DNA of 32,000 bases from Opitutales bacterium (GTDB lineage Bacteria; Verrucomicrobiota; Verrucomicrobiia; Opitutales; PNEW01): contig CBDCNV010000001.1 in NCBI GenBank assembly GCA_965219535.1, forward strand, positions 60,001 through 92,000. The letters are read 5' to 3'. How positions within the stretch are numbered: position 1 is the stretch's first letter; each line of letters opens with the position of its first letter. The position numbers and the translations under genes are program-made. The notes beneath the pieces were generated by a model. It ran no database searches. It worked only from the letters and a program-made list of their open reading frames with translations, and was not told the DNA's origin. Shown in pieces: positions 1 through 19,795 of the stretch.

Positions 1-2
1 CC

Positions 3-1337: not shown

Positions 1338-1401
1338 CTCTTTAAGGAGTATCCCAGGTATACCCCCACTCATCAATTCCTCGTCACACCTCCACAGCAC
1401 T

Positions 1402-1483: not shown

Positions 1484-1510
1484 AATTATAGTGCAAAGTA
1501 ACAATTTCAC

Positions 1511-1546
1511 TTGACTTCCCCGCCCATTTTTTGTTACTATAAGTCC
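1511..1546 (+). promoter_or_regulatory. Possible sigma70-like promoter for the IS1595-family transposase
   Basis: TTGACT (1511-1516), 18-nt spacer, TACTAT (1535-1540). AAGGAG Shine-Dalgarno at 1553-1558 lies 8 nt before ATG 1567. Confidence 0.3.
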
Positions 1547-1566
1547 GAAATTAAGGAGTGCAAATC

Positions 1567-2516
1567 ATGTCACAAAAAGCACCAGGCAAAGCATTTCGGA
1601 CCGGCATTTCTCTTCGCAAAGTCTTTCAAATGTTCCCAGATGATGCAACGGCGGAAGCGTGGGTTATCAAGGTGCGGTGGCCGGACGGAGTGACCTGCCC
1701 TTACTGTGATTCTACCAAGGTGCAAGACGGGGCCAAGCATCCGACCATGCGGTTCCGGTGCCGAGGCGGAAACGGAAAACGCTGCTACAAATTCTTCTCG
1801 CACCGCACCAAGACCCTAATGGAAGGCTCCAAGCTCGGGCCTCAAACGTGGGTGCTCGCCACTTATTTACTTTCGACCGGCATTAAGGGTACATCCAGCA
1901 TGAAGCTGCACCGCGACTTGGATATCAGTTATACGGCAGCCTGGTACCTGTCACACCGGATTCGAGAGGCATGGGAAAAAGGGAATGGTCTCTTCTCAGG
2001 GCCAATAGAAGTAGACGAGACGTATGTGGGCGGCAAAGAGAAGAACAAGCATGCCAGCAAGAAGACGAAGGCGGGGCGCGGGCCGGTTGGAAAAGCCGCC
2101 GTGGTTGGGATGAAGGACCGAGACACCAATACCGTAGAAGCTACCGTAGTTGAACGCACGGTTGCCCTGACGTTACAGGGCTTTGTGACCGAGCGCACGG
2201 AAGTAGGAGCCAAAGTCTACACGGACGATCACCGCAGTTATATCGGCCTAGAGAACCATGAGGCCGTTAAACATAGCCGTAAGTGAGTATGTCAACGGTT
2301 ATGGCCCACACCAACGGGATAGAGTCCTTCTGGGCCATGTTGAAGCGTGGATACAACTGCACCTATCATCACATGAGTGAAAAGCATTTGGGGCGCTACA
2401 TCAACGAGTTTGCCGGTCGGCATAACGTCCGGCCTCTTGACACCCTGGAACAAATGAAGATCGTGACGGAGGGTATTGTGGGAAAACGGCTCCGGTATAG
2501 TGAGTTGGTGACGTAA
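1567..2516 (+). pseudogene. IS1595-family (ISXO2-like) transposase, frameshifted
   Basis: N-terminal Zn-ribbon (CPYCDS..RFRCRGG..C) and DDE_Tnp_IS1595-like core (IEVDETYVGG; YTDDHRSY; HTNGIESFW). The coding path needs frame 1 to 2277, frame 2 for VSEYVNG (2279-2299), and frame 0 from about 2301 (MAHTNGIESFW..). ORF-track pieces are 1558..2286 and 2283..2516. Confidence 0.8.
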
Positions 2517-2548
2517 GAGGGACTACCGATAAAATCAGGGCAGGGTCA

Positions 2549-3444
2549 ATGAATTTTAAGGAAAACGAATCAGTTCAGAAATTGCGTGGCGGATACTACA
2601 CGCCAAACGATTTAGCCCATTTTATATCACGGTGGGTAGCAACCGCTACTCCGAAGCGAATACTGGAACCGAGTTGTGGGGATGGTAGATTTTTTCGTCC
2701 ACTTGCCACCTATACAGGTTCCGGTACATCTGAGGTTACGGCTTTTGAATTGGACACACTGGAGGCGGAAAAGGCTCAATTACATGCAGCGGAACTCAGA
2801 TTAAAAGCCACGGTAAGACCGACCGATTTTCTTGGTTGGGTGGTGAACCATCTTTGTGAAGAGGGGGAACGGTTTGATGCAGTAGTGGGCAATCCTCCCT
2901 TCATTCGCTATCAATACCTTCCTGAGAATTTTCAAAAGCTCGCTGAACAAATCTTTCAGTTGTTGGGATGTAAGTTCACAAAACATACAAACGCTTGGGT
3001 TCCTTTTGTACTTGCTTCGATTGCATTGTTGCGACCAGGGGGGCGACTTGGGATGGTCGTCCCCGCCGAAATTATTAACGTCATGCACGCGCAATCGTTG
3101 CGGTCGTATCTTGGAGAGAAGTGCAAGAAGATTGTTATTATTGATCCACAACAGTTGTGGTTTGAGGAAACCTTGCAGGGGGCAGTTATTCTACTTGCCG
3201 AGGTATGTGCGGATACGCAGCAACGACAAGAAGGATTAGGAATCCTTTCAGTTCGAGATAGAGAATTTGTGACCAAAGATGCAAACACGCTTTTTCACTC
3301 AGCGCCCGCTATTAACGGTAAAACCATCGCAGGAAAGTGGACGACAGCCCTCTTAGGTACTTCTACAATAAACCTCCTTGATGAATTACTGAATGATTCG
3401 CATGTGCATAGGTTCAAGGAAGTCGCACAAGTTGATGTTGGCAT
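2549..3444 (+). pseudogene. N6-adenine DNA methyltransferase (Eco57I/TaqI-like gamma class), 3'-truncated by IS insertion
   Basis: GGYYTP near the N-terminus; motif I ILEPSCGDGRFF; motif IV GNPPFIRYQY. The ORF runs into the IS right inverted repeat at 3445, so the last 10 codons of ORF 2549..3475 (DRTPFFVPI*) are IS-encoded. Confidence 0.8.
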
Positions 3445-4789
3445 TGATCGGACCCCGTTTTTCGTACCAATTTAAGTGAGAGAGTTACCGGGTGTTAATG
3501 GTTTTAGGATTGATGTATATGAGAGATCTTGGCGAAGTGAGGGCGTAGCCCGAACGCGGCCAAGATCGGAAAGGAATCTGACAAACTCTTGTGGGCTTTT
3601 GAAGCCTAAACGACTGTGGGGATGTTCATGGTTATAGGTCTGACGCCATTGTTCGATTACCACTTGCGCTTCAGCCACGCTGAGCAACACTTCACGGTTC
3701 AAACACTCATCGCGTAAGCGGTTGTGAAACGACTCGATGAAACCGTTTTGCCAGGGACTGCCCGGATCGATATAGATCGCCTTTATGTTATTACCGGACA
3801 ACCACTGCTGCACTTGATGAGCAATGAACTCACTGCCGTTGTCACTACGGATATAGCTGGGAGGTCCCTCCTCTTCAATGGCCTCGCTAAGCACAGAGAG
3901 GACATCGGTTGAGGTGAGTTGACGAGCGACCCGGATATCCAGGCATTTACGCGTATATGTCTTCGCTTCGCTTGAGTGTCGTCGCTTTCAGCTCCTCGGT
4001 ACATCGATTAGAGTCATCATCTTTAATGGACCGCCGTTGTCTGTACGATCATGGACAAAGTCCCAGGACCAAACGTGATTGCGACCCTTTGCTTTAGTAG
4101 GTGACCCCGTAGAGACTCCTTGACGGTGTCTGCCCTTTTTCGGGGGCTTTACCTGCAGCCCTTCTGAACGTCGTACCGCCTGGACAAACTTCCTGCTTGT
4201 TGTCCAGCCTTCCTTTACCAGCAAGGCACGGATGCGCCGGTAACCGTAGCGGGGATGTTTCCAGGACAAGCTCACAATCCGCTCGACCAACCGCTGAGCT
4301 TTCTCACTGGCCTGTTTGGGCCGGTAACTGAACGTTGACCAACTCAGGCTGAGATAAGCACAAGCCCTCCGCAACGAGCACAACCCTTTCTCAGCCGCAG
4401 CTTTTACTACTCGTTTCTTCTGCTTTGGGCGCACCATTTTTTTGACAGCGTTTCCTCCATTACCTGATTCTTGAGCATTTGATCTGCGAGCAGCTTCTTC
4501 AGCTCGGTATGTCAGGCCTTCTCGCTTGCGCTCGTGAATTCTTTTTCCAGCTCTTTAAATCGCTTCGCATCGGCAAGTTCTAAATTGCCATATTTTTTAC
4601 GCCAGCGATAGAAAGTCTGTTCGCTCAGGTTGTTTCCACGGCAGATTTCCTGTACCGTTTTACCGGTATCGGCTTGCCGCAATATTGTTATAATCTGTTC
4701 TGTTGTGTATCTTTTTCTTTTCATTGAGGTTATCTGTTTATCCCGATAACCTCTCTCTGTAAATGATACGATTTTTGGGGGTCACTCCA
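3445..4789 (-). mobile_element. IS3-family insertion sequence, full-length copy A (1345 bp)
   Basis: IRR (outside-in TGATCGGACCCCGTTTTTCGTACCAATTTAAGTGAGAG) starts at 3445. IRL (TGGAGTGACCCCCAAAAATCGTATCATTTACAGAGAG, reverse-complemented here) ends at 4789. Protein segments are identical to the other copies except S->R at orfB codon 3. Confidence 0.95.
3472..4724 (-). pseudogene. IS3-family transposase orfA/orfB of copy A, each interrupted by an in-frame TGA
   Basis: ORF-track pieces 4512..4724, 3988..4437 and 3472..3894 are colinear with copy B. HTH orfA; DDE core (WSWDF; SDNGSEF; QNGFIESFHNRLRDE). Confidence 0.85.
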
Positions 4790-4872
4790 AGTGTTTTCAT
4801 ATCTTGTGCAACAAGATCAAATAACTCCATAGATTTATGATAAGCTCCAAAAACTTTTAATCCACTTTTCAT
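4790..4872 (-). pseudogene. 27-codon N-terminal stub of a four-helix-bundle (23S rRNA IVS-like) protein gene, cut by IS copy A
   Basis: GGAGGAG Shine-Dalgarno then ATG at 4872..4870. MKSGLKVFGAYHKSMELFDLVAQDMKT runs straight into IRL at 4789. Family assignment rests only on the N-terminal pattern. Confidence 0.35.
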
Positions 4873-5003
4873 ATATCTTCACTCCTCCCTCGACACCTGC
4901 CCCTCGACACTCGACTATTTCTTATTTCATCTTTGGTACTATAAACGGAATATTTTAATATTTATTTATAGCTCAGCGAATGAGATGAATCGTCCTTCAG
5001 AAT

Positions 5004-5657
5004 TTACTTTCTCCCAAACAAATTAATCATGTACCCGCTCACAAAAAATGCAAACGCCACCAGACTGATCGGTGGCAGCCCGCCATGCCAGCTGGATGGG
5101 TTGAGCCAACCTTTGTAGCCCATAAAAAACAAGTGAACTGCACCGAGTATCATCGCTACTAGGAGGAATTTCCGTGAGGTAATAAATTGGATGAATGCCT
5201 TGTCTTCTCTCAGATGGGTTAGAAAACTCAGGTTGTAACCCCAGAGAATGACAAAGGCTAAAACACCACCGAGCATACTTATGCCTGCCAATAGTGTAAG
5301 CGAACCGTCTTGATCAAAAAACTTTCCGTATATTTTTGGATTAAACAGCATGAAGCTCATTAATGCATGGATGAGCACTAGCAAGAATCCGCTCATACCT
5401 AAAGCATTGCGGGCATTGAGCCAGCTTTCAGGAACTTTTAATCCCAGGTTTTTCAACGGTCCCAAACTGAAATTAAAAGTCAGCAATATAAATGCACTTA
5501 GTGAGACCCCTTTATTTAAAATAAAAAAGGGGAAATCTTTCCACGGTACCGGACCGACGATGTGGTAGCGAAGTATCGTATATCCAATCGAAAAGATTAG
5601 CGTAATCGCAATGATCCGACTTGCCGAGTTTTTATGAATTTCTGAATGATTAATCAA
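5004..5657 (-). CDS. Polytopic membrane protein, MsrQ/ferric-reductase-like transmembrane domain (tentative)
   Basis: About 6 hydrophobic segments with conserved-looking His in TM helices (LVLIHALMSF, LGAVHLFFMGY). TTG start at 5657 is uncertain. Confidence 0.5.
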   Translation of the reverse strand: MINHSEIHKNSASRIIAITLIFSIGYTILRYHIVGPVPWKDFPFFILNKGVSLSAFILLTFNFSLGPLKNLGLKVPESWLNARNALGMSGFLLVLIHALMSFMLFNPKIYGKFFDQDGSLTLLAGISMLGGVLAFVILWGYNLSFLTHLREDKAFIQFITSRKFLLVAMILGAVHLFFMGYKGWLNPSSWHGGLPPISLVAFAFFVSGYMINLFGRK

Positions 5658-5832
5658 AATATTATTAAATAAATCTCAATTTATCAAAATACAAATTTCG
5701 AATAATAGCCAAACTACAATTTCTAAATAACCAAACTGTTTTCGATTATTATTTTGTGTAAATTGGTTTTTTGGCTACTGGAATTTATTTGTGGTTTGTA
5801 ACTTGTTATTTTGTGCTTAAATTCATTTCACC

Positions 5833-6519
5833 TTACTCTGATTTCTTATCGCCTTTGATGAATGGCACCGCTTCCTGCGGAGTCTCTGCGAAGGAAATAA
5901 GATTGAGATCTTCTTCACCGATCGTTCCTTCACGAATCATTGTATTCGTGATAAATTCGCTCATTGCGTCCCAGAACTTGCCACCCAGGACGACGAGAGG
6001 AAAGGATTCGATCTTCCCGTTCTGTATGAGTGTAAGCGTCTCGAAAACTTCATCAAGCGTACCAAATCCACCAGGCAGAACGACAAAAGCGGAGGAGAGT
6101 TTCACCAGCATCATCTTGCGTACAAAGAAATGTTCAAATTCAACAAACTGATCCACATAGGGGTTTGGTTTTTGCTCCCTGGGTAGACTGATATTGCAAC
6201 CGATTGATCTGCCTCCCTTATCTTTAGCTCCGCGATTGGCTGCTTCCATGATTCCTGGACCTCCTCCGGTCACCACGGTATAGCCATCGATCGCCAACAG
6301 CCTTCCCATCTCGCGAGCCAGTACATAGCTAGGATGATCGTCTGAAAAACGGGCAGATCCGAATACTGTCACACATTTTCCTAAATCCTTAAGCTCGGCA
6401 GCTGCGTGAAGCGTCTCAATGAAAACCCGACCGGCGCTAACCAGTTCTTCGTCGTAAGATCTAAGGGCACGAAGAAAATTACGCTCTTCGTCGTGTCGTA
6501 TGTCGATAAATTGGCTCAT
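5833..6519 (-). CDS. LOG-family / TIGR00730 Rossmann-fold nucleotide-binding protein (cytokinin riboside 5'-monophosphate phosphoribohydrolase-like)
   Basis: Signature motifs TGGGPGIMEAANRGA and LPGGFGTLDEVFE; ATG start; TAA stop. Confidence 0.9.
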   Translation of the reverse strand: MSQFIDIRHDEERNFLRALRSYDEELVSAGRVFIETLHAAAELKDLGKCVTVFGSARFSDDHPSYVLAREMGRLLAIDGYTVVTGGGPGIMEAANRGAKDKGGRSIGCNISLPREQKPNPYVDQFVEFEHFFVRKMMLVKLSSAFVVLPGGFGTLDEVFETLTLIQNGKIESFPLVVLGGKFWDAMSEFITNTMIREGTIGEEDLNLISFAETPQEAVPFIKGDKKSE

Positions 6520-6719
6520 GGTGGGACCGGATTGATCGGTAAATTGTCAAAAGAAAAATCATGAAATTCAAATGACAAAAAGACAAATCACAAATCTCAA
6601 ATAATATTTAAATTACAAAATCTAAATTACCAAACGGTATTAAATAATAAGGAATCAGATATTCTTTTATCCTTTTTGTCGTTTTGGTTTCTCAATCATT
6701 AGAATATATTTGTATTTTG

Positions 6720-7811
6720 TCATTTGTATTTTGGGAAATTTATATTTCCCCGCATCTTCTGTGTCACGACACAACGGAAACCCGTGTGATTAGAACTGGA
6801 TCGTGGGTCTGTAGCCATACGGGCACTCGGCCTGAATCCGGTACAATAATTTTCGCTGCATAAGAATGATCCGCCTTTAACAATGCGTTTTGGAATACCG
6901 GGTTCATTAGGATCAAGGCTATGTTCTTTAATAACTCCTGTAGGGTTTTCTTTAGAGCTGACTTCATAATACCGGGGATGATACCAATCTGATACCCATT
7001 CCCAGACATTGCCGGCCATGTCATAAAGACCGTATCCGTTGGGTGGATAACTGCCAACAGGTGATGTAATACTATGGCCATCGTTGCCACTGTTTTCGTA
7101 AGGAAAATTCCCTTCCCAATAATTCATCACTTTATTCTCAAGATGCTCGGGTTGATCTCCCCATGTGTATACCTTATTATCCAAGCGACCACGTGCTGCG
7201 TACTCCCATTGTGCTTCGGTAGGCATCTCCTTACCTGCCCATTTGCAATAAGCCATTGCGTCATCATAGGTCACATGTACCACGGGATGATTCATTCTCT
7301 CTTCGATACTGCTTTCCAGTCCTTCGGGATGTCGCCAATTTGCACCTGGTTTATATTCCCACCAGTTATATAAATTTCTCATGTCAACTTTGCCGGTGGG
7401 TTGTTTAAAAACAATCGATGCGGGAATAAGCATCTCAGGTAGTGCACCCGGCCAATCTTCCGCTTTGGGCTTTTGTTCTGAATAGGTAATGTAACCTGTC
7501 TCTTCCACAAACTTCGCGTATTGTTCGTTTATCACGGGAGTCATATCTATCCAGAATCCATCGAGCTTCACCTCATGAACAGGGCTCTCATTGTTATAGC
7601 CGCCATGCGGCATTACCTTATTCCCTGTGTCATCTCCCATCATAAAAGCGCCACCTGGAATCCATAACATACCTGCAGGGCTTTGAATGTTTTGCGGATG
7701 GTCGACCGTTTTAGCTGAAGATTTTTTTATATCCTCACCTCCAGTATGCAGTACAGAAAGCAGCAAAGTTAAAAACCCAAAAGTAAAATAAGAATAAGGA
7801 TTATATTTCAA
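6720..7811 (-). CDS. Formylglycine-generating enzyme family protein (SUMF1/FGE-sulfatase domain), secreted
   Basis: N-terminal hydrophobic signal (FTFGFLTLLLSVLHTG); YGLYDMAGNVWEWVSDWY; GGSFLC..YC..RPSAR..TGFRCV. TTG start at 7811 is uncertain; TGA stop. Confidence 0.9.
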   Translation of the reverse strand: MKYNPYSYFTFGFLTLLLSVLHTGGEDIKKSSAKTVDHPQNIQSPAGMLWIPGGAFMMGDDTGNKVMPHGGYNNESPVHEVKLDGFWIDMTPVINEQYAKFVEETGYITYSEQKPKAEDWPGALPEMLIPASIVFKQPTGKVDMRNLYNWWEYKPGANWRHPEGLESSIEERMNHPVVHVTYDDAMAYCKWAGKEMPTEAQWEYAARGRLDNKVYTWGDQPEHLENKVMNYWEGNFPYENSGNDGHSITSPVGSYPPNGYGLYDMAGNVWEWVSDWYHPRYYEVSSKENPTGVIKEHSLDPNEPGIPKRIVKGGSFLCSENYCTGFRPSARMATDPRSSSNHTGFRCVVTQKMRGNINFPKYK

Positions 7812-7981
7812 AATGTCTGACTATGAAACCTAACGGAAAAGGGTAAGCAAAGTTGAGAGTTAAGTGTTATGAGTCAAAGAAAAACAATTGAATTACAGTT
7901 ATCAGTAATCAGACGTTGGAGTGACCCCCAAAAATCGTATCATTTACAGAGAGAGGTTATCGGGATAAACAGATAACCTCA

Positions 7982-9234
7982 ATGAAAAGAAAAAGATACA
8001 CAACAGAACAGATTATAACAATATTGCGGCAAGCCGATACCGGTAAAACGGTACAGGAAATCTGCCGTGGAAACAACCTGAGCGAACAGACTTTCTATCG
8101 CTGGCGTAAAAAATATGGCAATTTAGAACTTGCCGATGCGAAGCGATTTAAAGAGCTGGAAAAAGAATTCACGAGCGCAAGCGAGAAGGCCTGACATACC
8201 GAGCTGAAGAAGCTGCTCGCAGATCAAATGCTCAAGAATCAGGTAATGGAGGAAACGCTGTCAAAAAAATGGTGAGCCCAAAGCAGAAGAAACGAGTAGT
8301 AAAAGCTGCGGCTGAGAAAGGGTTGTGCTCGTTGCGGAGGGCTTGTGCTTATCTCAGCCTGAGTTGGTCAACGTTCAGTTACCGGCCCAAACAGGCCAGT
8401 GAGAAAGCTCAGCGGTTGGTCGAGCGGATTGTGAGCTTGTCCTGGAAACATCCCCGCTACGGTTACCGGCGCATCCGTGCCTTGCTGGTAAAGGAAGGCT
8501 GGACAACAAGCAGGAAGTTTGTCCAGGCGGTACGACGTTCAGAAGGGCTGCAGGTAAAGCCCCCGAAAAAGGGCAGACACCGTCAAGGAGTCTCTACGGG
8601 GTCACCTACTAAAGCAAAGGGTCGCAATCACGTTTGGTCCTGGGACTTTGTCCATGATCGTACAGACAACGGCGGTCCATTAAAGATGATGACTCTAATC
8701 GATGTACCGAGGAGCTGAAAGCGACGACACTCAAGCGAAGCGAAGACATATACGCGTAAATGCCTGGATATCCGGGTCGCTCGTCAACTCACCTCAACCG
8801 ATGTCCTCTCTGTGCTTAGCGAGGCCATTGAAGAGGAGGGACCTCCCAGCTATATCCGTAGTGACAACGGCAGTGAGTTCATTGCTCATCAAGTGCAGCA
8901 GTGGTTGTCCGGTAATAACATAAAGGCGATCTATATCGATCCGGGCAGTCCCTGGCAAAACGGTTTCATCGAGTCGTTTCACAACCGCTTACGCGATGAG
9001 TGTTTGAACCGTGAAGTGTTGCTCAGCGTGGCTGAAGCGCAAGTGGTAATCGAACAATGGCGTCAGACCTATAACCATGAACATCCCCACAGTCGTTTAG
9101 GCTTCAAAAGCCCACAAGAGTTTGTCAGATTCCTTTCCGATCTTGGCCGCGTTCGGGCTACGCCCTCACTTCGCCAAGATCTCTCATATACATCAATCCT
9201 AAAACCATTAACACCCGGTAACTCTCTCACTTAA
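7982..9234 (+). pseudogene. IS3-family transposase orfA (7982..8275) and orfB (8269..9234) of copy B; in-frame TGA at 8192-8194 and 8716-8718
   Basis: orfA gives MKRKRYTTEQIITILRQADTGKTVQEICRGNNLSEQTFYRWRKKY.. (HTH), then TGA, and the same frame continues HTELKKLLADQMLKNQVMEETLSKKW*. orfB gives MVSPKQKK..WSWDFVHD..TLIDVPRS, then TGA, and the same frame continues ..TYTRKCLD..SDNGSEF..QNGFIESFHNRLRDE.. Confidence 0.85.
8263..8269 (+). promoter_or_regulatory. Putative -1 programmed ribosomal frameshift site (A AAA AAA) joining orfA to orfB
   Basis: The A7 run sits in phase with orfA codons (tcA AAA AAA tgg tga). orfB (ATG 8269) is in the -1 frame. This is the standard IS3-family arrangement. 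Confidence 0.6.
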
Positions 9235-9261
9235 ATTGGTACGAAAAACGGGGTCCGATCA

Positions 9262-10247
9262 ATGTATCCGTTCTGCCAAGGGCTTCCTGGTTCGATATAG
9301 AGGGTATTGATTTTCATCGCAGTTAGCCAGGCTCTCAATTCACTTCCAATAAATGGCTTCGCATGTCGTCGCTTCGCTCCTCGGAACCGATCCATTGTCG
9401 CTGCGAATATATTTTGGCGGCCCATGACGGTCGAGCAGTTTTTGCATGACCCCGCGCACCTTCTCCGCATTGATATGGCGATCGACATGGATCACCCGGC
9501 ACTCGCGGGTGTACTCGTCAAGGACGGTCAGCATTTTGAGATTCCCACCGCGGACCGTCTTATCGTGGATAAAATCCCAGGTCTAAACAGGGACGGGAGC
9601 CCGGTGGAGACACGCCGACGCCTTGGTTTGCGTGGGGGGATCGTCAGGCCCAGTTCACGTCGCAGACCTTGCACGAGCCGTTTACCCACCTGCCAGCCTT
9701 CGTCCTTCAACAGCTTCGTGATCTTCGCATAGCCCCACCTCGCGTATTGCCGTGATAACCGCCTTACTGCCGCTTTTAGTTTCGTTAGCCAGGCATCCGG
9801 ATACTTCGCCCGATATGCATAGGTGGAGCGGTGCAGGTGAAAGTATCGGCACGCTCCACGCATCGAACACTGACCCCGAGCCACATAGTTTTCCGACACC
9901 TGACGTTTGTGCCTAGCACTTACCGTTTTTTCTCAGCGCTTCCTTGAGAATCTCTATGGCTAACAGCTTGTCCGCGAGTATCCGCTTTAACCGTTTGTAT
10001 TCTTTATTCAACTCCTTCCTCTTGGCCCGATTCACATCAATCATTCAATCTCCCGCTGCCAACAGTGGAAGGTCTGTTCGCTGACGTTGTTATCCCGGCA
10101 CACTTCCTGGATCGATTTGCCCTTGTCTGCTTGCCGCAATATACGTATCTTCTCTTCGGTTGTATATTTTTTGCCCTTCATTGTCTGGTCCTTTCTAGGT
10201 TACCCAGACTAACTTTTCAAGTGTACCAGTTTTCGTGGATATGACCA
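9262..10247 (-). mobile_element. Remnant of a third, distinct IS3-family element (frameshifted orfA/orfB; 3' end removed by IS copy B)
   Basis: orfA starts at ATG 10181..10179 (MKGKKYTTEEKIRILRQADKGKSIQEVCRDNNVSEQTF..), then changes frame to ..MIDVNRAKRKELNKEYKRLKRILADKLL... orfB pieces are 9528..9899, 9340..9534 and 9231..9488 (..YIRSDNGS.., ..GSPWQNGYI), cut at 9262. An IR-like end (TGGTCATATCCACGAAAACTGGTACAC, rc) ends near 10247. Confidence 0.8.
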
Positions 10248-10855
10248 ATAGGCATGGAGGGAGTGTGCCACGTCTCTTCCTTGGTCGAACTGATGAAGGG
10301 AATCTATGGCGCTTCGGCGTGCATTTGCCTGAGGCAACGTGTGAGGAACTTGCGTCACTTGGCGAAGATGAGCCGCTGACTTTGATTGGTCGACCTAAAT
10401 ATGAGTCCACTTATATCCAAATACTCTCAGCACTGTCCCCCGTAGAGCGAACATGGTTTGGCCCAGCGTATTGGTTTCCTCGTGGAGCAGCGCCGACTGC
10501 AGGACCGGTTTTGATGAATGAAGAGAATTCACATTTCCTTCAATGTGGACTTGAGGCCTGGCTACCAGATGTACCCCACCACCAACCCTTTGCAGTAATG
10601 ATTGAAAACAGAAGAGCAGTCTCGGTTTGTGCTAGCGTAAGGATAACACCAGCCGCTCATGAGGCAGGAGTTGAGACTTTAGAGAAATACCGACGAAAGG
10701 GGTACGCTGTTTTAACCGTATCAACCTGGGCTAAGGCAGTTGAAGAAATGGGTGCTTTACCGCTCTATAGTACTTCGATAGAGAATGTCGCATCTCAAAG
10801 TGTTGCAGTGCGTTTAGACTTGGCTAGATACGGTGTTGACTTCCATGTAGTTTAA
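10241..10855 (+). CDS. GNAT-family (FR47-like) N-acetyltransferase
   Basis: C-terminal acetyl-CoA-binding region GVETLEKYRRKGYAVLTVSTWAKAVEEMGALPLYSTSIENVASQSVAVRLDL. The ORF-track start GTG 10235 lies inside the neighbouring IS end, so ATG 10241 is preferred. Start uncertain. Confidence 0.6.
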   Translation: MTNRHGGSVPRLFLGRTDEGNLWRFGVHLPEATCEELASLGEDEPLTLIGRPKYESTYIQILSALSPVERTWFGPAYWFPRGAAPTAGPVLMNEENSHFLQCGLEAWLPDVPHHQPFAVMIENRRAVSVCASVRITPAAHEAGVETLEKYRRKGYAVLTVSTWAKAVEEMGALPLYSTSIENVASQSVAVRLDLARYGVDFHVV

Positions 10856-10970
10856 AGCGATGCATAACGCTGTTCGTTCCTCGCTCTGCTGTTACCTGCC
10901 AGTGATGCGTGGCGTTATACAAAAAATGGTTTTGAAAAAATGAAAAAACCACTGATGCCAAGCGACAGAG

Positions 10971-10985
10971 TGGAGTGACCCCCAA
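10971..10985 (+). repeat. Orphan 15-nt copy of the IS left terminus (TGGAGTGACCCCCAA)
   Basis: Identical to the first 15 nt of IRL at 7917 and 15667. Sequence beyond it is unrelated to the IS. Confidence 0.6.
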
Positions 10986-11177
10986 TGAATAGTTGGGTGC
11001 AACCTAAACCCAACAAGAAGGTGAGCAAAGGCATTTGCACTGCAGGAAAACGGAAACATATGAAACCATCACGAACCCTACTGGCAGAACATTACCAATA
11101 ACTAGCTCATGCCCAGGCAAAGGACTGTGATTGATTCAACCATCAGCCACCACAACCATTATACAGCTTCCAAACTA

Positions 11178-11840
11178 CTAAACCGGCTTCACAGCCTTAA
11201 TACCAAAAGATAAGTCAGAAAACCTTTTAACACGAATCGACTGAAAACATAATTTCTCAAGAGCCAACAAGGATTCATCAACATACCAGAAAAATTCTTC
11301 CTCTATCGCCTCTGCCGTAACATCCTCCCCTTGCTTTCTATACTTTTCAATTTGCGACTTCTTCAAATCTTTCGATTCAAGCATTAGATCCCCAAAGACG
11401 GCAACCCCTCCCGGCTCAAGGACTTTCCATATTTTATTAAATAGCATCTTCTTTTCTTCCTCTAAAAGATGATGTACTGTGTACGTACTCATAACCACAT
11501 GAAATGATCCCAACTCACCATCAAAGACACCCAATATGTCATCAGCTATAAACTTTCTGGTTTTGAGATGTTCCAACTTTTCTCGAGCCAATTTTTCCAT
11601 CTCCTCAGAGACATCTACACACACGATTTCGGAACATTGATGGATCTTCTCAGTCAAATTGCCTGAACCCGAACCCAGCTCCAAAACCCGCTTATCTTTG
11701 ACTACTTCCGCGTTACTAAAAACCCATTGCAAAGTTTCCGCATAGCCCGTGCGTATCGGGAAACTCTCGTCCTTTACATCATCATCGTAGCCTTCGGCAG
11801 AGTCATCGTGGTTAAAATCACTAACGTGTTTACTTCTCAT
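11178..11840 (-). CDS. Class I SAM-dependent methyltransferase
   Basis: Motif I VLELGSGSGNLT; acidic post-I (VCVDVSEEM); motif IV-like VMSTYTVHHL. Confidence 0.85.
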   Translation of the reverse strand: MRSKHVSDFNHDDSAEGYDDDVKDESFPIRTGYAETLQWVFSNAEVVKDKRVLELGSGSGNLTEKIHQCSEIVCVDVSEEMEKLAREKLEHLKTRKFIADDILGVFDGELGSFHVVMSTYTVHHLLEEEKKMLFNKIWKVLEPGGVAVFGDLMLESKDLKKSQIEKYRKQGEDVTAEAIEEEFFWYVDESLLALEKLCFQSIRVKRFSDLSFGIKAVKPV

Positions 11841-12121
11841 TTTTCTAAGAGACTATCCAATAATTCTATTTAGCAAGTCTTTTAATCATGAGTCTGGACA
11901 TTCTATGTGAATCATCGTTTCGAATGAGCAGACTTTCGATTCTTTATTAACTTGAAGCCTTCCCTGCTGAGTGATCCAAGCGAAATGACGTGCCCCCAAA
12001 TCGTATCATTAACAGAGAGAGGTTATCGGGATAAACTGACCTGTCCCCGTAAAACTGGACCAGCAAAGATTTAGTCTGGCATGGGTGAAAAACTAATAAA
12101 TAATAGGAGAAAGAACGACCC

Positions 12122-12394
12122 ATGAAAAGCAAAGGCAAACGCTATAATAAAGAACAAATCATCTATGCCCTAAGGCAGGTAGAAGGCGGTCGAAGGATTG
12201 CCGAAGTGTGCCGAGAGTTAGGCGTAAGCGAACAGACCTACCACCGATGGAAGGGTAAATACGCGGGCCTGGGAATAAGCGAATTAAGACGGCTGAAGCA
12301 ACTTGACGAAGAGAACAGCAGTTTGAAGAAACTGGTAGCTGATCTGAGCCTGGACAAGCACATGCTGCAGGAAGTAATCGCAAAAAAGTTATAA
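12122..12394 (+). CDS. IS3-family transposase OrfA (HTH + leucine zipper)
   Basis: MKSKGKRYNKEQIIYALRQVEGGRRIAEVCRELGVSEQTYHRWKGKY..LKQLDEENSSLKKLVADLSLDKHML; uninterrupted. Confidence 0.9.
   Translation: MKSKGKRYNKEQIIYALRQVEGGRRIAEVCRELGVSEQTYHRWKGKYAGLGISELRRLKQLDEENSSLKKLVADLSLDKHMLQEVIAKKL
12382..12388 (+). promoter_or_regulatory. -1 programmed frameshift motif A AAA AAG
   Basis: gcA AAA AAG tta taa is in phase with orfA. orfB is open in the -1 frame from here. Confidence 0.7.
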
Positions 12395-12399
12395 AGCCA

Positions 12400-13449
12400 G
12401 TGGACAAGAAGGTGATTGCTGACTGGTTAGTGGAAGCTTATGAAGTTAGCAAACGCCGGGCGTACAGGCTGATGCAGTTGTCTTGGTCGAGTTATAACTA
12501 CCAGCCTGTGAAGAGGGACGAACGCGCGCTTATCATGCGCATACGTGACCTCGCCGCAGCGCGGGTGCGCTACGGGTATCGGCGAATCACGGTGTTATTA
12601 AAACGGGAAGGCTGGTCGGTAGGAAAGAAACGCGTTTATCGGCTCTACAAGGCCGAAGGGCTGGAAGTGCGCACGAAGAAACGAAAGAAGCGTGCCGCGC
12701 AAAGGCGGGTCGCACTGCCCGCGGCTACAGCAGCCCAGGAGCGCTGGTCGATGGACTTTATGAGCGATCGGCTGACCAACGGCCGCCCCTTCCGCATACT
12801 CACCGTTGTCGATCAATACACCCGAGCTTGCCCACTGCTTTTGGTCGATACGTCCATCGGTGGGCGCAAAGTCGCTGCAGCACTTATGAAAGCCGCTGCA
12901 GGAATCGGTCTTCCCAAAACCATTACCGTCGATAATGGTCCCGAGTTTGCCGGCAAAGTACTCGATGAATGGGCTTATGGCCATGGCATCAAGCTGGATT
13001 TTATCCGCCCAGGCAGACCCGTAGAAAATGGTTATATTGAGAGCTTCAATGGACGCTTACAAGATGAACTTCTTAACCCCAAGATATTTTGTACGCTAGC
13101 TGAAGTGAAAGAGCAACTTGAATCCTGGAGGTTTGATTATAATATTCAAAGACCACACTGTTCTCTGGGCTATCGGCCTTCGGCCGAATACGCCCAGAGC
13201 GCCATATCTAAGCAAATCAAAACCCTTGCCACCCTGCTGGATTTAAAACTGACTCTGGTACAGCATAAGGGTGCAGGTCACGTAACATATCGAAAAATCG
13301 ATAAATCCAACCTTTCTAACAAATCATATGAGAAGTCTCGGACAGAAAATGTACCTTATTCGACTCGTCGGTTCCATTTCTCTCCTTTCTCTCGGCGTTC
13401 CAATGGGGAACTACGCCGCATGGAGTCCACTACCACCACCACCCGATGA
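12400..13449 (+). CDS. IS3-family transposase OrfB (DDE integrase core), expressed as OrfAB by -1 frameshift; the ORF has no stop inside the IS
   Basis: WSMDFMSD; TVDNGPEF; ENGYIESFNGRLQDE; RPHCSLGY. The reading frame passes through IRR (13280) and only stops at 13447-13449 in flanking DNA. Confidence 0.85.
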   Translation: MDKKVIADWLVEAYEVSKRRAYRLMQLSWSSYNYQPVKRDERALIMRIRDLAAARVRYGYRRITVLLKREGWSVGKKRVYRLYKAEGLEVRTKKRKKRAAQRRVALPAATAAQERWSMDFMSDRLTNGRPFRILTVVDQYTRACPLLLVDTSIGGRKVAAALMKAAAGIGLPKTITVDNGPEFAGKVLDEWAYGHGIKLDFIRPGRPVENGYIESFNGRLQDELLNPKIFCTLAEVKEQLESWRFDYNIQRPHCSLGYRPSAEYAQSAISKQIKTLATLLDLKLTLVQHKGAGHVTYRKIDKSNLSNKSYEKSRTENVPYSTRRFHFSPFSRRSNGELRRMESTTTTTR

Positions 13450-14425
13450 GTTCGACTGGATCCAGTTGACCTCGGGAGAGTGGCTAAAGGGTGAAATTAA
13501 AGAGATGTATGATTACACCGTCGAGTTTGACAGCGACAAACTCGGCCTCCTCGACATCGATTGGGACGATGTAGCGCAGATGCACTCGGCACGATCGCAA
13601 ATGGTCCGTTATGGAGATCGACAAACTGCAACTGGCAAACTCTTTATGAAAGGAGATGAACTCGTGGTTACGGAGTCGGAGAAAGACCTAGTAATAAATC
13701 GCTCAGACGTTTTTTCAATCGCTGCTGGGAGCCCCAAGAAACTGGACTTGTGGTCCGCAAAAGCCACCGTCGGCGCGAACATTGGGAGCGGAAACACCGA
13801 ACAAGCCGACTGGAATACCTTGGTGACGATCCAGCATCGAACCGCGAATAACCGCTTCTACTTCGATTACATCGGAACTTTCAGTAAAACCGAGGGAATA
13901 GAAACGGCCAATAGTCATCGCACTAATTCATATTTCGATATTTCTTTTACAAAGAAATTTTTCGTTCGCCCCTTCGCCATTGAGTCTTTCGCGAATCCCT
14001 TTCAAAACATAGATAACCGCTATTCTCTTGGCGCAGGGGTCGGCTACAACATTAAGAGAAACTCAAAAACGGAATGGGATACCACGACAGAAATCAGTTA
14101 TCAATTGACACGGTTCTCCACCGTGCAGGTCGGAGAACAGGCAAGCGATGAGGCGCTCTCGTTCTCAGTCGGATCCCATTTCGTAACGGAGATCACAGAA
14201 TGGCTGGATCTGAACGGAATCTATGAGTTACGCTATGCCGACGAAGCTTCCGGGGGAGTTATTTCACATTCCATAACAAGCATCGAGTTCGAGATTACAA
14301 ACAGGCTCAACCTTAATGTTTCCTTTGTATGGGACTGGACAGCGAATCCTATTCCCGACGCCACCGGTAAGGAACCGGAGGAAAACGATTTCCAGTTCAT
14401 ATTTGGTATCGGATTGGATCTGTAG
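13349..14425 (+). CDS. DUF481-like outer-membrane beta-barrel protein
   Basis: Signal-like N-terminus MYLIRLVGSISLLSLGVPMG from ATG 13349. Alternating beta-strand pattern with GANIGSGNTEQ.. and a C-terminal aromatic-rich FQFIFGIGLDL. The ORF track starts at 13328. Confidence 0.65.
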   Translation: MYLIRLVGSISLLSLGVPMGNYAAWSPLPPPPDEFDWIQLTSGEWLKGEIKEMYDYTVEFDSDKLGLLDIDWDDVAQMHSARSQMVRYGDRQTATGKLFMKGDELVVTESEKDLVINRSDVFSIAAGSPKKLDLWSAKATVGANIGSGNTEQADWNTLVTIQHRTANNRFYFDYIGTFSKTEGIETANSHRTNSYFDISFTKKFFVRPFAIESFANPFQNIDNRYSLGAGVGYNIKRNSKTEWDTTTEISYQLTRFSTVQVGEQASDEALSFSVGSHFVTEITEWLDLNGIYELRYADEASGGVISHSITSIEFEITNRLNLNVSFVWDWTANPIPDATGKEPEENDFQFIFGIGLDL

Positions 14426-14553
14426 CCGACGCCCGAATCATTTCCTGGATGGCGTTCGTTACCGATCCCCAAATCTTGTCAACAACCATCTGTGGCTGAT
14501 GTCGGTGAAGAAAGTTCAGGAAAAGGACGATAATTAGAAGTGAATAGTGAGAG

Positions 14554-14850
14554 TGATCGGACCCCGTTTTTCGTACCAATTTTTAAGTGAGAGAGTTACC
14601 GGGTGTTAATGGTTTTAGGATTGATGTATATGAGAGATCTTGGCGCAGTGAGGGCGTAGCCCGAACGCGGCCAAGATCTGAAAGGATACTGATAAACTCC
14701 AGTGGACTTTTAAAGCCTAAATGACTATGAGGATGTTCATTATTGTAGGTCTGACGCCATTGTTAGATTACCCCTTGCGCTTCAGCTACGCTGAGCAATA
14801 CATCAGGGTTCAGACACGCATCGCGTAATCGGTTGTGAAACGACTCGATG
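14554..14850 (-). mobile_element. Diverged (~85-90% by eye) right-end fragment of an IS related to the 1345-bp element, internally truncated
   Basis: TGATCGGACCCCGTTTTTCGTACCAATTTTTAAGTGAGAGAGTTACCGGGTGTTAATGG.. is colinear with 3445..3740 and ends abruptly after ..GTGAAACGACTCGATG at 14850. Confidence 0.85.
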
Positions 14851-14978
14851 TATGACACTATATGGATCTATCAATCAAATGAGGTATACGCGGAATTAAT
14901 GGATTAAGTTTCAATCAGTAAATCGATATAATATTAAAACCATAGTGAGTATTGTATTAATTCATCTAATATCATTAA

Positions 14979-15509: not shown

Positions 15510-15534
15510 GAAGAATAATCTCATGAAGTGACTA

Positions 15535-15666: not shown

Positions 15667-16351
15667 TGGAGTGACCCCCAAAAATCGTATCATTTACAGA
15701 GAGAGGTTATCGGGATAAACAGATAACCTCAATGAAAAGAAAAAGATACACAACAGAACAGATTATAACAATATTGCGGCAAGCCGATACCGGTAAAACG
15801 GTACAGGAAATCTGCCGTGGAAACAACCTGAGCGAACAGACTTTCTATCGCTGGCGTAAAAAATATGGCAATTTAGAACTTGCCGATGCGAAGCGATTTA
15901 AAGAGCTGGAAAAAGAATTCACGAGCGCAAGCGAGAAGGCCTGACATACCGAGCTGAAGAAGCTGCTCGCAGATCAAATGCTCAAGAATCAGGTAATGGA
16001 GGAAACGCTGTCAAAAAAATGGTGAGCCCAAAGCAGAAGAAACGAGTAGTAAAAGCTGCGGCTGAGAAAGGGTTGTGCTCGTTGCGGAGGGCTTGTGCTT
16101 ATCTCAGCCTGAGTTGGTCAACGTTCAGTTACCGGCCCAAACAGGCCAGTGAGAAAGCTCAGCGGTTGGTCGAGCGGATTGTGAGCTTGTCCTGGAAACA
16201 TCCCCGCTACGGTTACCGGCGCATCCGTGCCTTGCTGGTAAAGGAAGGCTGGACAACAAGCAGGAAGTTTGTCCAGGCGGTACGACGTTCAGAAGGGCTG
16301 CAGGTAAAGCCCCCGAAAAAGGGCAGACACCGTCAAGGAGTCTCTACGGGG
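15667..16351 (+). mobile_element. IS3-family element copy C, 5' 685 bp only
   Basis: Matches copy B from IRL through orfB codon ~111 (..RQGVSTG). It then abuts the IRR of inverted copy D. Confidence 0.9.
15732..16351 (+). pseudogene. Truncated transposase orfA / orfB-5' of copy C
   Basis: ORF-track 15732..15944 and 16019..16354 are identical to copy B, including the orfA TGA. Confidence 0.85.
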
Positions 16352-17695
16352 TGATCGGACCCCGTTTTTCGTACCAATTTAAGTGAGAGAGTTACCGGGT
16401 GTTAATGGTTTTAGGATTGATGTATATGAGAGATCTTGGCGAAGTGAGGGCGTAGCCCGAACGCGGCCAAGATCGGAAAGGAATCTGACAAACTCTTGTG
16501 GGCTTTTGAAGCCTAAACGACTGTGGGGATGTTCATGGTTATAGGTCTGACGCCATTGTTCGATTACCACTTGCGCTTCAGCCACGCTGAGCAACACTTC
16601 ACGGTTCAAACACTCATCGCGTAAGCGGTTGTGAAACGACTCGATGAAACCGTTTTGCCAGGGACTGCCCGGATCGATATAGATCGCCTTTATGTTATTA
16701 CCGGACAACCACTGCTGCACTTGATGAGCAATGAACTCACTGCCGTTGTCACTACGGATATAGCTGGGAGGTCCCTCCTCTTCAATGGCCTCGCTAAGCA
16801 CAGAGAGGACATCGGTTGAGGTGAGTTGACGAGCGACCCGGATATCCAGGCATTTACGCGTATATGTCTTCGCTTCGCTTGAGTGTCGTCGCTTTCAGCT
16901 CCTCGGTACATCGATTAGAGTCATCATCTTTAATGGACCGCCGTTGTCTGTACGATCATGGACAAAGTCCCAGGACCAAACGTGATTGCGACCCTTTGCT
17001 TTAGTAGGTGACCCCGTAGAGACTCCTTGACGGTGTCTGCCCTTTTTCGGGGGCTTTACCTGCAGCCCTTCTGAACGTCGTACCGCCTGGACAAACTTCC
17101 TGCTTGTTGTCCAGCCTTCCTTTACCAGCAAGGCACGGATGCGCCGGTAACCGTAGCGGGGATGTTTCCAGGACAAGCTCACAATCCGCTCGACCAACCG
17201 CTGAGCTTTCTCACTGGCCTGTTTGGGCCGGTAACTGAACGTTGACCAACTCAGGCTGAGATAAGCACAAGCCCTCCGCAACGAGCACAACCCTTTCTCA
17301 GCCGCAGCTTTTACTACTCGTTTCTTCTGCTTTGGGCTCACCATTTTTTTGACAGCGTTTCCTCCATTACCTGATTCTTGAGCATTTGATCTGCGAGCAG
17401 CTTCTTCAGCTCGGTATGTCAGGCCTTCTCGCTTGCGCTCGTGAATTCTTTTTCCAGCTCTTTAAATCGCTTCGCATCGGCAAGTTCTAAATTGCCATAT
17501 TTTTACGCCAGCGATAGAAAGTCTGTTCGCTCAGGTTGTTTCCACGGCAGATTTCCTGTACCGTTTTACCGGTATCGGCTTGCCGCAATATTGTTATAAT
17601 CTGTTCTGTTGTGTATCTTTTTCTTTTCATTGAGGTTATCTGTTTATCCCGATAACCTCTCTCTGTAAATGATACGATTTTTGGGGGTCACTCCA
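16352..17695 (-). mobile_element. IS3-family element copy D, full length minus 1 nt (1344 bp)
   Basis: IRR starts at 16352; IRL ends at 17695. The T6 run seen in copy A (ccatattttttacgcc) is T5 here (17498-17502 region), which frameshifts orfA. Confidence 0.95.
16379..17630 (-). pseudogene. Transposase orfA/orfB of copy D (both TGAs plus an extra 1-nt deletion in orfA)
   Basis: ORF-track 16895..17344 and 16379..16801 are identical to copy B. The 70-aa orfA ORF is absent from the track for this copy. Confidence 0.85.
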
Positions 17696-19707: not shown

Positions 19708-19795
19708 CTCTTATAAATTGCATAAATGTAATATAAGTAATTGTATAACAAACACATTATACAACACTTCGCAACAATTGCAAGCACTATAACTA

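Follow-up and report, generated by a model that had tools for sequence, protein, structure and literature searches.

The 32,000-nt stretch of an Opitutales bacterium genome analyzed here (contig CBDCNV010000001.1, positions 60,001 to 92,000; hereafter the window) carries several copies of an IS3-family element in which both transposase genes, orfA and orfB, are interrupted by an in-frame TGA. A previous sequence-only reading had located both stops inside extra, frame-keeping blocks present in every copy, offered two explanations (amplification of a crippled element, or passage of the stops by readthrough or recoding that throttles the transposase), and proposed a search for insert-free copies together with BLASTP alignment. 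The question is whether these TGAs are decoded or are plain stops in dead genes, and what the blocks that carry them are. The TGAs, the A7 run, the reading frames and the copy coordinates of that reading were all reproduced (Table 1).

Table 1. Coordinates of the IS3-family element, its copies and its mini-inserts (X) in the window.
Feature	Position	Strand	Basis or remarks
IS3-family element, copy B (reference)	7917..9261	+	1345 bp; Pfam domains; aligns end to end with insert-free relatives L001-L003
Left terminal inverted repeat, TGGAGTGACCCCCAAAAATCG	7917..7937	+	Comparison of copies and relatives
orfA frame, broken by TGA 8192-8194	7982..8275	+	ATG 7982
Mini-insert X in orfA, 28 nt, TTCACGAGCGCAAGCGAGAAGGCCTGAC, carries TGA	8168..8195	+	Replaces one A of GAA-A-ATACC; net +27 (9 codons)
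A7 slippery run, orfA/orfB -1 frameshift	8263..8269	+	A6G in relatives
orfB frame (DDE/rve transposase), broken by TGA 8716-8718	8269..9234	+	ATG 8269
Mini-insert X in orfB, 43 nt, TACCGAGGAGCTGAAAGCGACGACACTCAAGCGAAGCGAAGAC, carries TGA	8705..8747	+	Replaces one A of ATCGATG-A-ATATACG; net +42 (14 codons)
Right terminal inverted repeat, ...CGAAAAACGGGGTCCGATCA	9242..9261	+	Comparison of copies and relatives
Remnant of another IS3-family element (~75% related), cut short by copy B	9262..10247	-	
Mini-insert X in remnant, 32 nt, TTCCGAGGAGCGAAGCGACGACATGCGAAGCC	9355..9386	-	Between DNG and EF codons; net +31, frame shifted
Copy A	3445..4789	-	X inserts 4511-4538 and 3959-4001
Copy C, 5' part only, cut by copy D insertion	15667..16351	+	X insert 15918-15945
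Copy D, 1-nt deletion in orfA	16352..17695	-	X inserts 17418-17445 and 16866-16908

The element itself is unremarkable, and its layout (OrfA, -1 frameshift, OrfB with a DDE domain, 4-bp duplication) matches that of IS407-like IS3 elements. OrfA matched the Pfam domain HTH_Tnp_1 (E=2.6e-18), and OrfB matched rve_3 (E=8.3e-26), rve (E=3.4e-17) and HTH_21 (E=8.6e-10). Past its TGA, the orfA frame reads HTELKKLLADQMLKNQVMEETLSKKW up to a stop at 8273-8275. The orfB frame lies in the -1 frame, overlaps orfA at the A7 run, is open upstream of the run, and continues beyond its own TGA through the DDE core to 9234. The ends of the element (TGGAGTGACCCC... and ...GGGGTCCGATCA) provide the 5'-TG...CA-3' termini of the IS3-family type. 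By its domains, A-run frameshift, TG...CA ends and 4-bp duplications, the element is an IS3-family member, represented here by a defective copy. No target duplications flank the window copies, and the evidence for transposition given below is drawn from other genomic copies.

Alignment with insert-free relatives, which set the insert boundaries at the DNA level, confirmed that the TGA-bearing blocks are true insertions, of 28 nt in orfA and 43 nt in orfB. Among OrfB homologues, the closest (P0001-P0009; 306-307 aa, 88-89% identical by BLASTP and 92-93% in alignment) read TLID-E-YTR, with neither block nor stop. At the DNA level, relatives of ~94% identity lack both blocks and both stops, and orfA and orfB are intact in L001-L003 and L250-L252; the proposed search thus recovered the stop-free, block-free relatives. 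These intact relatives stem from another assembly (ERZ25069191) and are ~6% diverged; among the window and the fetched loci, no intact insert-free copy from the window's own genome was found. The orfA site is also empty within the same lineage (L256, L257 and L121), and the empty allele GAAAAAGAAAATACCGAG is present in L256 and L257 as well as in the relatives. The two comparator elements used in the earlier reading (11986..13280 and 9262..10247) had been read correctly, and the second of them, the remnant, itself carries a related 32-nt insert. On these alignments, both blocks appear to be secondary insertions that entered the transposase genes later and independently. That they contain TGAs would be accidental: the orfB stop falls in the loop GC-TGAAA-GC, the orfA stop in GGCCTGAC. 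Both blocks are also members of a single family of very small mobile sequences, termed X, which goes beyond what could be seen from the window.

Across the IS family, X occupies five sites (reference positions 250, 761, 890, 971 and 1013) with net lengths of +27, +42, +31, +42 and +35, respectively, in seven combinations of occupancy. Since the +31 and +35 inserts break the frame of the same genes, keeping the frame is no general trait of X. Of the four sense-strand TGA[AG]T sites in the IS, X occupies three. That a single 1.3-kb IS family should have received the same kind of tiny secondary insertion at five sites is unusual. In practical terms, it is often these 28-49-nt blocks, as opposed to random decay, that have turned IS3 transposase genes of Opitutales and related marine Verrucomicrobiota into pseudogenes, and such cases can be recognized and masked in annotation.

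Programmed readthrough or recoding would require inefficient decoding of the TGAs, either by near-cognate tRNA-Trp or as selenocysteine, with a trickle of full-length OrfAB throttling transposition. The frame-keeping lengths of both window inserts (+27, +42) and a window lineage otherwise free of lesions in orfA and orfB are compatible with such a mechanism, as is the C that follows the first TGA, because TGA followed by C is a weak termination context in bacteria. However, the stops are located in foreign inserted sequence that is missing from close relatives, and in diverged homologues the stop position holds a sense codon (Glu or Asn) with the entire block missing, showing that the stop is not conserved. 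The sequence-only reading was right that the stops are present in every copy, but their conservation does not follow: the window copies differ at just 2 of 1345 positions (a 1-nt deletion in copy D at the equivalent of 8108 and an A>C in copy A at the equivalent of 8275), so that a shared stop is uninformative and reflects recent copying. No stable hairpin was found downstream of either TGA, and the RNA folds around them (-6.2 and -4.6 kcal/mol) are weaker than those of shuffled controls (z = +2.1 and +1.4). TGA is also a regular stop in this DNA, terminating 5 of the 18 window ORFs of at least 200 aa; this, and the finding that the long ORFs are intact and unfragmented under table 11, led us to reject a genome-wide reassignment of TGA (codes 4 and 25). 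Two readthrough events combined with a -1 frameshift would, moreover, give a vanishing combined yield. Transposition was equally successful in sister copies that had gained a +31 frameshifting insert or a TAG nonsense codon, and therefore readthrough is unnecessary to explain the amplification. On this evidence, we regard a readthrough throttle as very unlikely, and both TGAs act as normal stop codons. The proposal that the blocks are ordinary lineage-specific transposase loops, in which the TGAs arose as recent point mutations, is less credible still and can practically be dismissed. Nothing other than the preserved frame of both blocks speaks for it, whereas inserts at other sites and in unrelated contexts are of the same sequence family as the blocks, and the clean absence of the blocks from relatives of ~94% DNA identity and from same-lineage copies refutes it.

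The same comparison bears out the other explanation of the earlier reading, the amplification of a crippled element by trans-mobilization, recombination or gene conversion, through insert-free relatives, shuffled insert combinations among near-identical copies, and fresh duplications around lesion-bearing copies. Copies of the window type (inserts at 250 and 761) and copies with a further insert at 890 occupy many loci. Complete Opitutales genomes with X-bearing copies include OY829953, OZ244160 and MAG CBDANS01. Perfect 4-bp duplications were found at four of ten copies examined (GAGG, GGAA, GAGC and TGAT), and also at L031, L082, L062 and L003. A lineage with an additional TAG nonsense at orfB codon 22 comprises at least nine copies, two of which are flanked by duplications (TTGC and CTTT), and other X-bearing copies have 19- or 20-nt deletions. 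The occurrence of fresh 4-bp duplications around two-TGA, frameshifted and TAG-nonsense copies alike indicates that dead copies were mobilized in trans, which is a known fate of defective IS copies. We conclude that this is, with high probability, an ordinary IS3 element whose transposase genes were broken by two X insertions, whose TGAs are plain stops, and which was still spread by a transposase acting in trans. The window copies would make OrfA only as a 70-aa fragment, would lack full OrfAB transposase and would be non-autonomous; their intact ends would permit mobilization by a transposase that, we infer, is supplied by intact related copies, and recombination among co-resident copies would account for the shuffled inserts. 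Several observations count against this explanation, among them that no intact copy from the window's genome was found in the loci read, and the near-invariance and common codon phase of X described below. IS3-family transposases are generally described as cis-preferential, which makes heavy amplification of dead copies somewhat unexpected. Besides X, orfA and orfB of the window lineage are free of lesions, a pattern that is also predicted if X is removed at the RNA level. For these transposase genes, the recoding story is thus replaced by plain stops in dead, trans-mobilized copies, and the apparent conservation in all copies by their young age.

Removal or skipping of X after transcription, with a functional transposase as the outcome, could proceed by excision of a tiny protein-dependent intron (endonuclease and RtcB-type ligase) or by ribosomal bypassing, routes that can be likened to the SOS splicing of transposons from animal mRNAs, to T4 gene 60 and to mitochondrial byps. 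RNA-level excision of transposons has precedent (PMC11870413), and so do IStrons (PMC4227781). It would agree with the abundance and recent mobility of IS copies that bear X, those with frameshifts among them, and with the near-invariance of X while the IS backbone diverges. X is nearly invariant across IS lineages 88-95% identical to the insert-free reference, and the 43-nt orfB insert is identical in them save for an A/C difference near its 3' end; such uniformity could be a sign of constraint, and not of recent spread or gene conversion. The 49-nt class of X is structured (three covarying base pairs, 95.9% of cells paired), and one complete tRNA-Ser(GCU) gene, part of a tRNA array, has an X at its A58. 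On the other hand, one target A is missing at every site, and hence exact removal of the block leaves a -1 frameshift. Many X-bearing copies carry further lesions (the TAG and the 19-/20-nt deletions) that functional genes would not tolerate; in the single case of a gene under selection, X keeps the frame and brings no stop, which splicing would make unnecessary; and most of the T-loop cases are tRNA fragments, not working genes. Inspection of 8705-8747 and 8168-8195 revealed no matching codon pair that would restore the frame. There are no matched take-off and landing codons and no stop directly after a take-off codon, the stops falling 3-8 codons into the inserts without a hairpin, in disagreement with bypassing. 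Neither a helix-bulge-helix nor any other conserved pairing between X and the IS flanks was found. A search of 16 X-bearing loci at Rfam gathering thresholds matched only tRNA and SRP RNA. With no group I, group II or small-ribozyme match and with inserts of 21-55 nt, a self-splicing intron or known ribozyme was rejected, as was a hammerhead ribozyme, whose CUGANGA...GAAA pattern the core resembles but, on inspection, fails at two essential positions. Like IStrons (PMC4227781), SOS splicing (PMC11870413) and T4 gene 60/byp, X is a coding-sequence insertion that need not destroy the product; it lacks, however, the defining features of these systems, namely the ribozyme, the pairing inverted ends, and the matched take-off and landing codons. 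We consider post-transcriptional removal very improbable, and the evidence on X in the IS points to real inactivation, unlike in those systems.

The 20-nt core of X, CCGAGGAGCGAAGCGACGAC, recurs exactly across several phyla, with more than 230 exact matches among the matches listed across collections. Its contexts are IS3 transposase genes, tRNA T-loops at A58, the apices of integron-like hairpins, and one conserved gene, in frame. Empty and filled alleles could be compared at IS position 250, at positions 761, 890, 971 and 1013, and between L258 (empty) and L127 (filled). Seven sites have known empty alleles, and at each of them the insert takes the place of one target A without any duplication; the target is G-A-AT with a single A replaced, and overall loose, roughly YG-A-RT. 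X lacks inverted ends, since its 5' ends (TWCCGAG...) are not complementary to its 3' ends (...GAC, ...GCC, ...AAC), and it shows neither a target duplication nor, at the 66 non-IS loci compared, a linked gene. An all-against-all ORF comparison of these loci found no recurrent neighbor protein and no linked HUH gene. At coding sites the core lies in the same codon phase in seven of seven cases, which the GAR codon of the target explains only partly. One conserved protein family, of 140 aa, has a 49-nt X in place of the A of a GAG codon (net +48), in frame and stop-free; the filled alleles are L127 and L128, the empty allele is L258, and L127 and L258 come from the same metagenome. This case agrees with a DNA insertion that is tolerated and translated through, and not with its removal. 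A six-frame peptide search found X in only three proteins, and X is rare in called genes.

X may be built of mini-hairpin modules of the form CGAG-loop-CGAG with GAA or GNRA loops. This G.A-paired reading of the core derives from the sequence pattern, a few compensatory variants and the GCGAAGC hairpin literature (PMC13037366), not from computed energies; standard RNA and DNA energy models predicted no stable fold of the inserts. The empty IS sites showed no folding either, so that hairpin-loop targeting inside the IS was rejected, and the target there looks, from its bases, to be sequence-defined (TGART). Searches of Rfam and of the literature for the motif, its peptides and the concept returned nothing specific to X, and the family is apparently widespread and undescribed. 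Searching a plasmid collection with the DNA of the whole IS returned nothing beyond a conserved patch of 70 nt in IS3 genes of actinobacteria. An origin of X in E. coli, phage or plasmid was discarded, with nothing found in E. coli; matches in a Vibrio phage and in virus Rctr197k proved to be look-alikes of ribosome-binding sites (GGAGG..ATG). Integron cassette boundaries (G-TTRRRY) do not fit X, and Helitron-/IS91-type and Tc1-/IS630-type junctions do not fit the one-base replacement.

We tentatively suggest that X might constitute an undescribed class of ultra-small mobile elements: 21-55 nt long, structured, geneless, without inverted ends or duplication, inserted in one orientation, replacing exactly one adenine at G-A-R(T), and sharing an identical 20-nt core across phyla. 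The proposed class would span Verrucomicrobiota, Gammaproteobacteria, Spirochaetota, Acidobacteriota and others, landing in transposase Glu codons, tRNA T-loops (A58) and integron-like hairpin apices and, rarely, in frame in conserved genes. X could move if a widespread enzyme, of the host or of an element, copied a small structured RNA or single-stranded DNA by target priming; a variable 2-nt junction at the 5' end, a precise one at the 3' end and the loss of one target nucleotide would all fit such a process. In a stronger version of this proposal, X is possibly a hyperparasite that disables IS elements.

Several known systems resemble X in part. The transposed mini-introns of archaeal tRNAs (Thermoproteales) are very short related sequences at several tRNA positions, including the T-loop, and require the archaeal splicing endonuclease and a bulge-helix-bulge fold. 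X shares the T-loop location with them but is bacterial, occurs also in protein genes and hairpin apices, and has no such fold. With REP/REPIN sequences (RAYT) and IS200/IS605 palindromes (HUH), X has in common short hairpin-forming units, the lack of duplication and a strand-specific orientation; REPs, however, are species-specific and extragenic, unlike X. IS200/IS605 elements insert beside a fixed 4-5-nt target with no base loss, whereas X loses one target base and no HUH gene is linked to it in the 66 non-IS loci. Rickettsia palindromic elements and other bacterial MITEs (Correia, ERIC and RUP) have been reviewed (PMC2229807, PMC10969869). Like these, X is small, non-autonomous and dispersed, with filled and empty alleles, and like X, they can lie in frame in conserved protein genes and in RNA genes; Correia elements also occur within transposase genes (PMC2229807). 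These elements are ~100-200 bp long, most have terminal inverted repeats, and several have TA termini or target duplications (PMC2229807). In contrast, X measures 21-55 nt, has neither inverted ends nor duplication, replaces one target nucleotide and keeps an identical 20-nt core across phyla. It thus falls outside a strict definition of MITEs (parent-matching inverted repeats and target duplication) and within a broad one of small mobile repeats (many dispersed copies, with filled and empty alleles). If X is truly a mobile element, it lies well below the known size of bacterial MITEs (~100-200 bp; PMC2229807) and combines an unusual integration signature, in which one base is replaced, with an invariant core across phyla and tRNA T-loop targeting. 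Identification of its mover could reveal new integration chemistry and make testable the idea that mobile elements are disabled by smaller parasites. X can itself be a target, as in L023, where one X is nested within another.

Re-reading of the sequence bore out the positions of orfA and orfB, both in-frame TGA codons, the A7 run and the -1 frame of orfB as the sequence-only reading had described them. OrfA contains an HTH_Tnp_1 domain and OrfB contains HTH_21, rve and rve_3 domains (Pfam), with element termini TGGAGTGACCCC... on the left and ...GGGGTCCGATCA on the right. The element, of which the window has three complete copies and a truncated fourth, is an ordinary, defective member of the IS3 family. 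The stops had been regarded as conserved in every copy; they are indeed present in all window copies, but these differ at only 2 of 1345 positions, so the shared stops reflect recent copying and not conservation. In copy A (3445-4789), a single A>C at position 4431, equivalent to 8275 of reference copy B (7917-9261), replaces Ser by Arg at orfB codon 3 and converts the orfA stop TGA (8273-8275) to TGC, extending the orfA frame in this copy.

Coordinates of features in the window
Feature	Position	Strand	Remark
orfA	start 7982; TGA 8192-8194	+	same frame on to 8273-8275; sequence reading
A7 run	8263-8269	+	within orfA frame continuation
orfB	start 8269; TGA 8716-8718	+	-1 frame; open through DDE core to 9234
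IS1595-family transposase ORF	1558-2286		
N6-methylase ORF	2549-3475		runs into end of copy A
Second IS3 element	11986-13280		uninterrupted
Short IS remnants	1402-1476, 14556-14855, 15544-15666		
Tyrosine integrase gene	18343-19707		

The best OrfB homologues in a search of 5.8 billion proteins (306-307 aa; 88-89% identity by BLASTP, 92-93% in alignment) read TLID-E-YTR at the block position. Their DNA (L001-L003 and L250-L252) aligns end to end with copy B, with ~94% identity outside the inserts, and lacks both blocks. The boundaries are exact: GAAAAAGAA-A-ATACCGAG becomes GAAAAAGAA[TTCACGAGCGCAAGCGAGAAGGCCTGAC]ATACCGAG in orfA (8168-8195), and ATCGATG-A-ATATACG becomes ATCGATG[TACCGAGGAGCTGAAAGCGACGACACTCAAGCGAAGCGAAGAC]ATATACG in orfB (8705-8747). 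The orfA site is also empty in same-lineage copies (L256, L257, and L121). These boundaries and relatives substantiate the earlier claim that the blocks are extra insertions, and provide the insert-free, stop-free copies that had been proposed as a search target and whose existence elsewhere had been named as one ground for refutation.

The four window copies of the IS family were aligned with 33 others, 37 in all, taken from an Opitutales MAG, a complete chromosome, ENA assemblies, and one Tara contig. The alignment revealed such inserts, termed X, at five sites (reference positions 250, 761, 890, 971, and 1013, the first two being those of the window) in seven occupancy combinations. At all five sites, one A in a G-A-A/G-T context is swapped for a block that starts with T(A/T)C(C/A)CGAG... 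and ends with C. The block lengths are 28, 43, 32, 43, and 36 nt (net +27, +42, +31, +42, and +35), and the frame is shifted at two of the five sites. The blocks belong to a single family that does not, as such, preserve the frame. Three of the four sense-strand TGA[AG]T sites in the IS are occupied. The 32-nt form also interrupts the DNG|EF codons of the window remnant of another IS3 element (9355-9386, minus strand), and X is visible as the peptides VPRSEATTCEAI and LPSEATPQRA.ARIT in other homologues. Two OrfB homologues (P0030 and P0116) read SDNGSVPR|SEATPQRA.ARITNGF, having lost what lies between the 890 and 971 inserts, apparently by recombination of two X copies within one gene. At the 890 site, an otherwise intact IS copy (L004, 2673-3971) has a 21-nt version that keeps the frame, GTG[TTCCGAGGAGCGAAGCGAGTG]AGTTC, and its OrfB of 313 aa (P0010) is uninterrupted; this version came either from a hit of its own or from the 32-nt insert by a change that restored the frame.

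The sequence-only reading had offered two explanations for the stops, namely readthrough or recoding, and amplification of a crippled element. Recoding is rejected: TGA is a normal terminator in the window, where 5 of the 18 ORFs that reach 200 aa end in it, and the RNA fold around both TGAs is weaker than that of shuffled controls. No take-off/landing codon pair restoring the frame was found for either block, and since each insertion cost one target base, cutting either block out exactly would shift the frame by -1. An Rfam search of X-bearing loci returned only tRNAs and one SRP RNA. Our conclusion is that the TGAs came in incidentally with the inserted sequence, in a GC-TGAAA-GC loop in orfB and in GGCCTGAC in orfA.

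Amplification of a crippled element is supported by the insert-free relatives and by fresh duplications at broken copies. The index of the collection lists the exact 149-aa window orfB fragment under 37 blocks; the 22 contigs that were read belong to two assemblies. Window-type copies (250 + 761) and copies with an added frameshifting 890 insert each occupy several loci, and perfect 4-bp duplications (GAGG, GGAA, GAGC, and TGAT) flank four of the ten copies examined. Outside the 890 insert, the triple-insert type does not differ from the window type; its probable origin is recombination with another copy rather than a new hit, since its right junction has A, as in all other filled alleles, where the window GAG codon has G. 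One MAG contains at least nine copies of a separate lineage that combines the 761 and 890 inserts with a true nonsense codon, TAG, at codon 22 of orfB; some copies of this lineage are flanked by fresh duplications (TTGC and CTTT). Other insert-bearing copies have further lesions (19- or 20-nt deletions). Given the fresh duplications, dead copies of this family are mobilised in the genomes studied, and neither readthrough nor splicing is needed for the amplification in the window. With the inserts, OrfA would end beyond its HTH domain and OrfB would stop short of two of its three catalytic residues; such copies would be non-autonomous, with transposase presumably supplied by intact relatives, and inter-copy recombination would reshuffle the inserts.

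The 20-nt X core, CCGAGGAGCGAAGCGACGAC, has a chance expectation of ~1 in the genome collection. Exact matches number more than 111 there and more than 120 in metagenomes, both lower bounds, with three more in viral contigs. Of 248 occurrences classified by context, 68 cap a long hairpin resembling integron attC sites (mostly in Spirochaetota), 49 lie in the DNG|EF codons of several Opitutales IS3 lineages, 25 in the T-loop of tRNA or tRNA-fragment sequences, 51 at other sites with complementary flanks, and 55 elsewhere. A 49-nt class (16 distinct copies, mostly exactly 49 nt) has a 3' hairpin with three base pairs changed on both sides and 95.9% of cells paired. Core variants retain a GNA or GNRA loop, one with a G:C to A:T double change, and one X is nested in another at a GAG-A-AT site. 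No recurrent protein family adjoining X was found in 66 non-IS loci, and a literature search for the core motif or its peptides found no mention. In the Spirochaetota-type contigs (L013, L021, L033, L050, L060, and at least 60 metagenome loci, e.g., L130-L140), the core caps a ~105-nt hairpin whose stems covary while the apex is identical, and whose ends resemble integron attC sites (..CTAAC....GTTGTTAG..).

In tRNA contexts, mostly from Woeseiaceae and other Proteobacteria, ..GGTTCG-A-ATCC.. becomes ..GGTTCG[X]ATCC... Such T-loops with the core (GGTTCG[X]ATCC...CCA) occur in L056 (3780-3850, minus strand), L070 (7340-7440, minus strand), L010, L043, L191, L212, L161, L201, L222, and others. 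An X-bearing tRNA-Arg 3' fragment lies just downstream of an intact tRNA-Arg and terminator in several Woeseiaceae species, and other Proteobacteria have an X-bearing tRNA-Phe 3' fragment, twice in L222. A complete tRNA-Ser(GCU) in a tight array with eight other tRNA genes (L234, ~361-566, minus strand) carries a 55-nt X where A58 would be, and was found by ARAGORN only once X was removed; the gene may be either dead or processed. Tandem 36-nt units (GGTTCACA + core + AGGCCGAA) stand in front of a tRNA-like 3' end in L178 (371-426, minus strand) and L248 (15-110, minus strand).

Only three called proteins carry X in a six-frame peptide search, and X is therefore largely confined to harmless places, namely IS copies, tRNA fragments, and hairpin loops. 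X also occurs in a gene under selection: in a conserved 140-aa protein family, neighbored by ParB-like and methyltransferase genes, one member, which also occurs in viral contigs, has a 17-residue block in place of Glu. Its DNA shows TTCGCGG-A-GATCAG (L258) changed to TTCGCGG[49 nt]GATCAG (L127, L128), the filled L127 and empty L258 sharing one metagenome. The insert is stop-free (net +48) and replaces one base as elsewhere. The pattern agrees with insertion at the DNA level and translation across the insert wherever it is tolerated, similar to the in-frame insertion of Rickettsia palindromic elements (PMC2229807, PMC10969869); an intron does not fit. A PolX-like ORF (P0123; DNA_pol_B_thumb) includes VPRSEATTRPGAERTGP, the X peptide of the 49-nt class, read in the phase that it also has in the IS; this ORF seems to be truncated and may be a pseudogene.

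X inserts in a single orientation, has a precise 3' junction (..C|A) and two variable bases at its 5' junction, and costs the target one base. These four features would fit target-primed copying of a small RNA or single-stranded DNA; an HUH-type single-strand reaction or ligation into a one-base gap are possible alternatives. X behaves like known small mobile repeats but departs from their defining traits: it has no inverted ends or duplication, is two to ten times smaller, replaces one target base, and has a core invariant across phyla. It is probably a new variant of small mobile elements. The in-frame TGA finding itself is ordinary, and it is the X family that deserves follow-up.

Positions 1-20000 of the window are an IS graveyard. 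No target duplications were found at the window IS copies, which suggests rearrangement by inter-copy recombination. Diverged repeats with 75-82% identity (243-1337 vs 24513-25607; 24512-24731 vs 27400-27619) correspond to large proteins that are paralogues and share an Ig_7 (CHU_C-associated) domain (21-1337 and 24513-26759).
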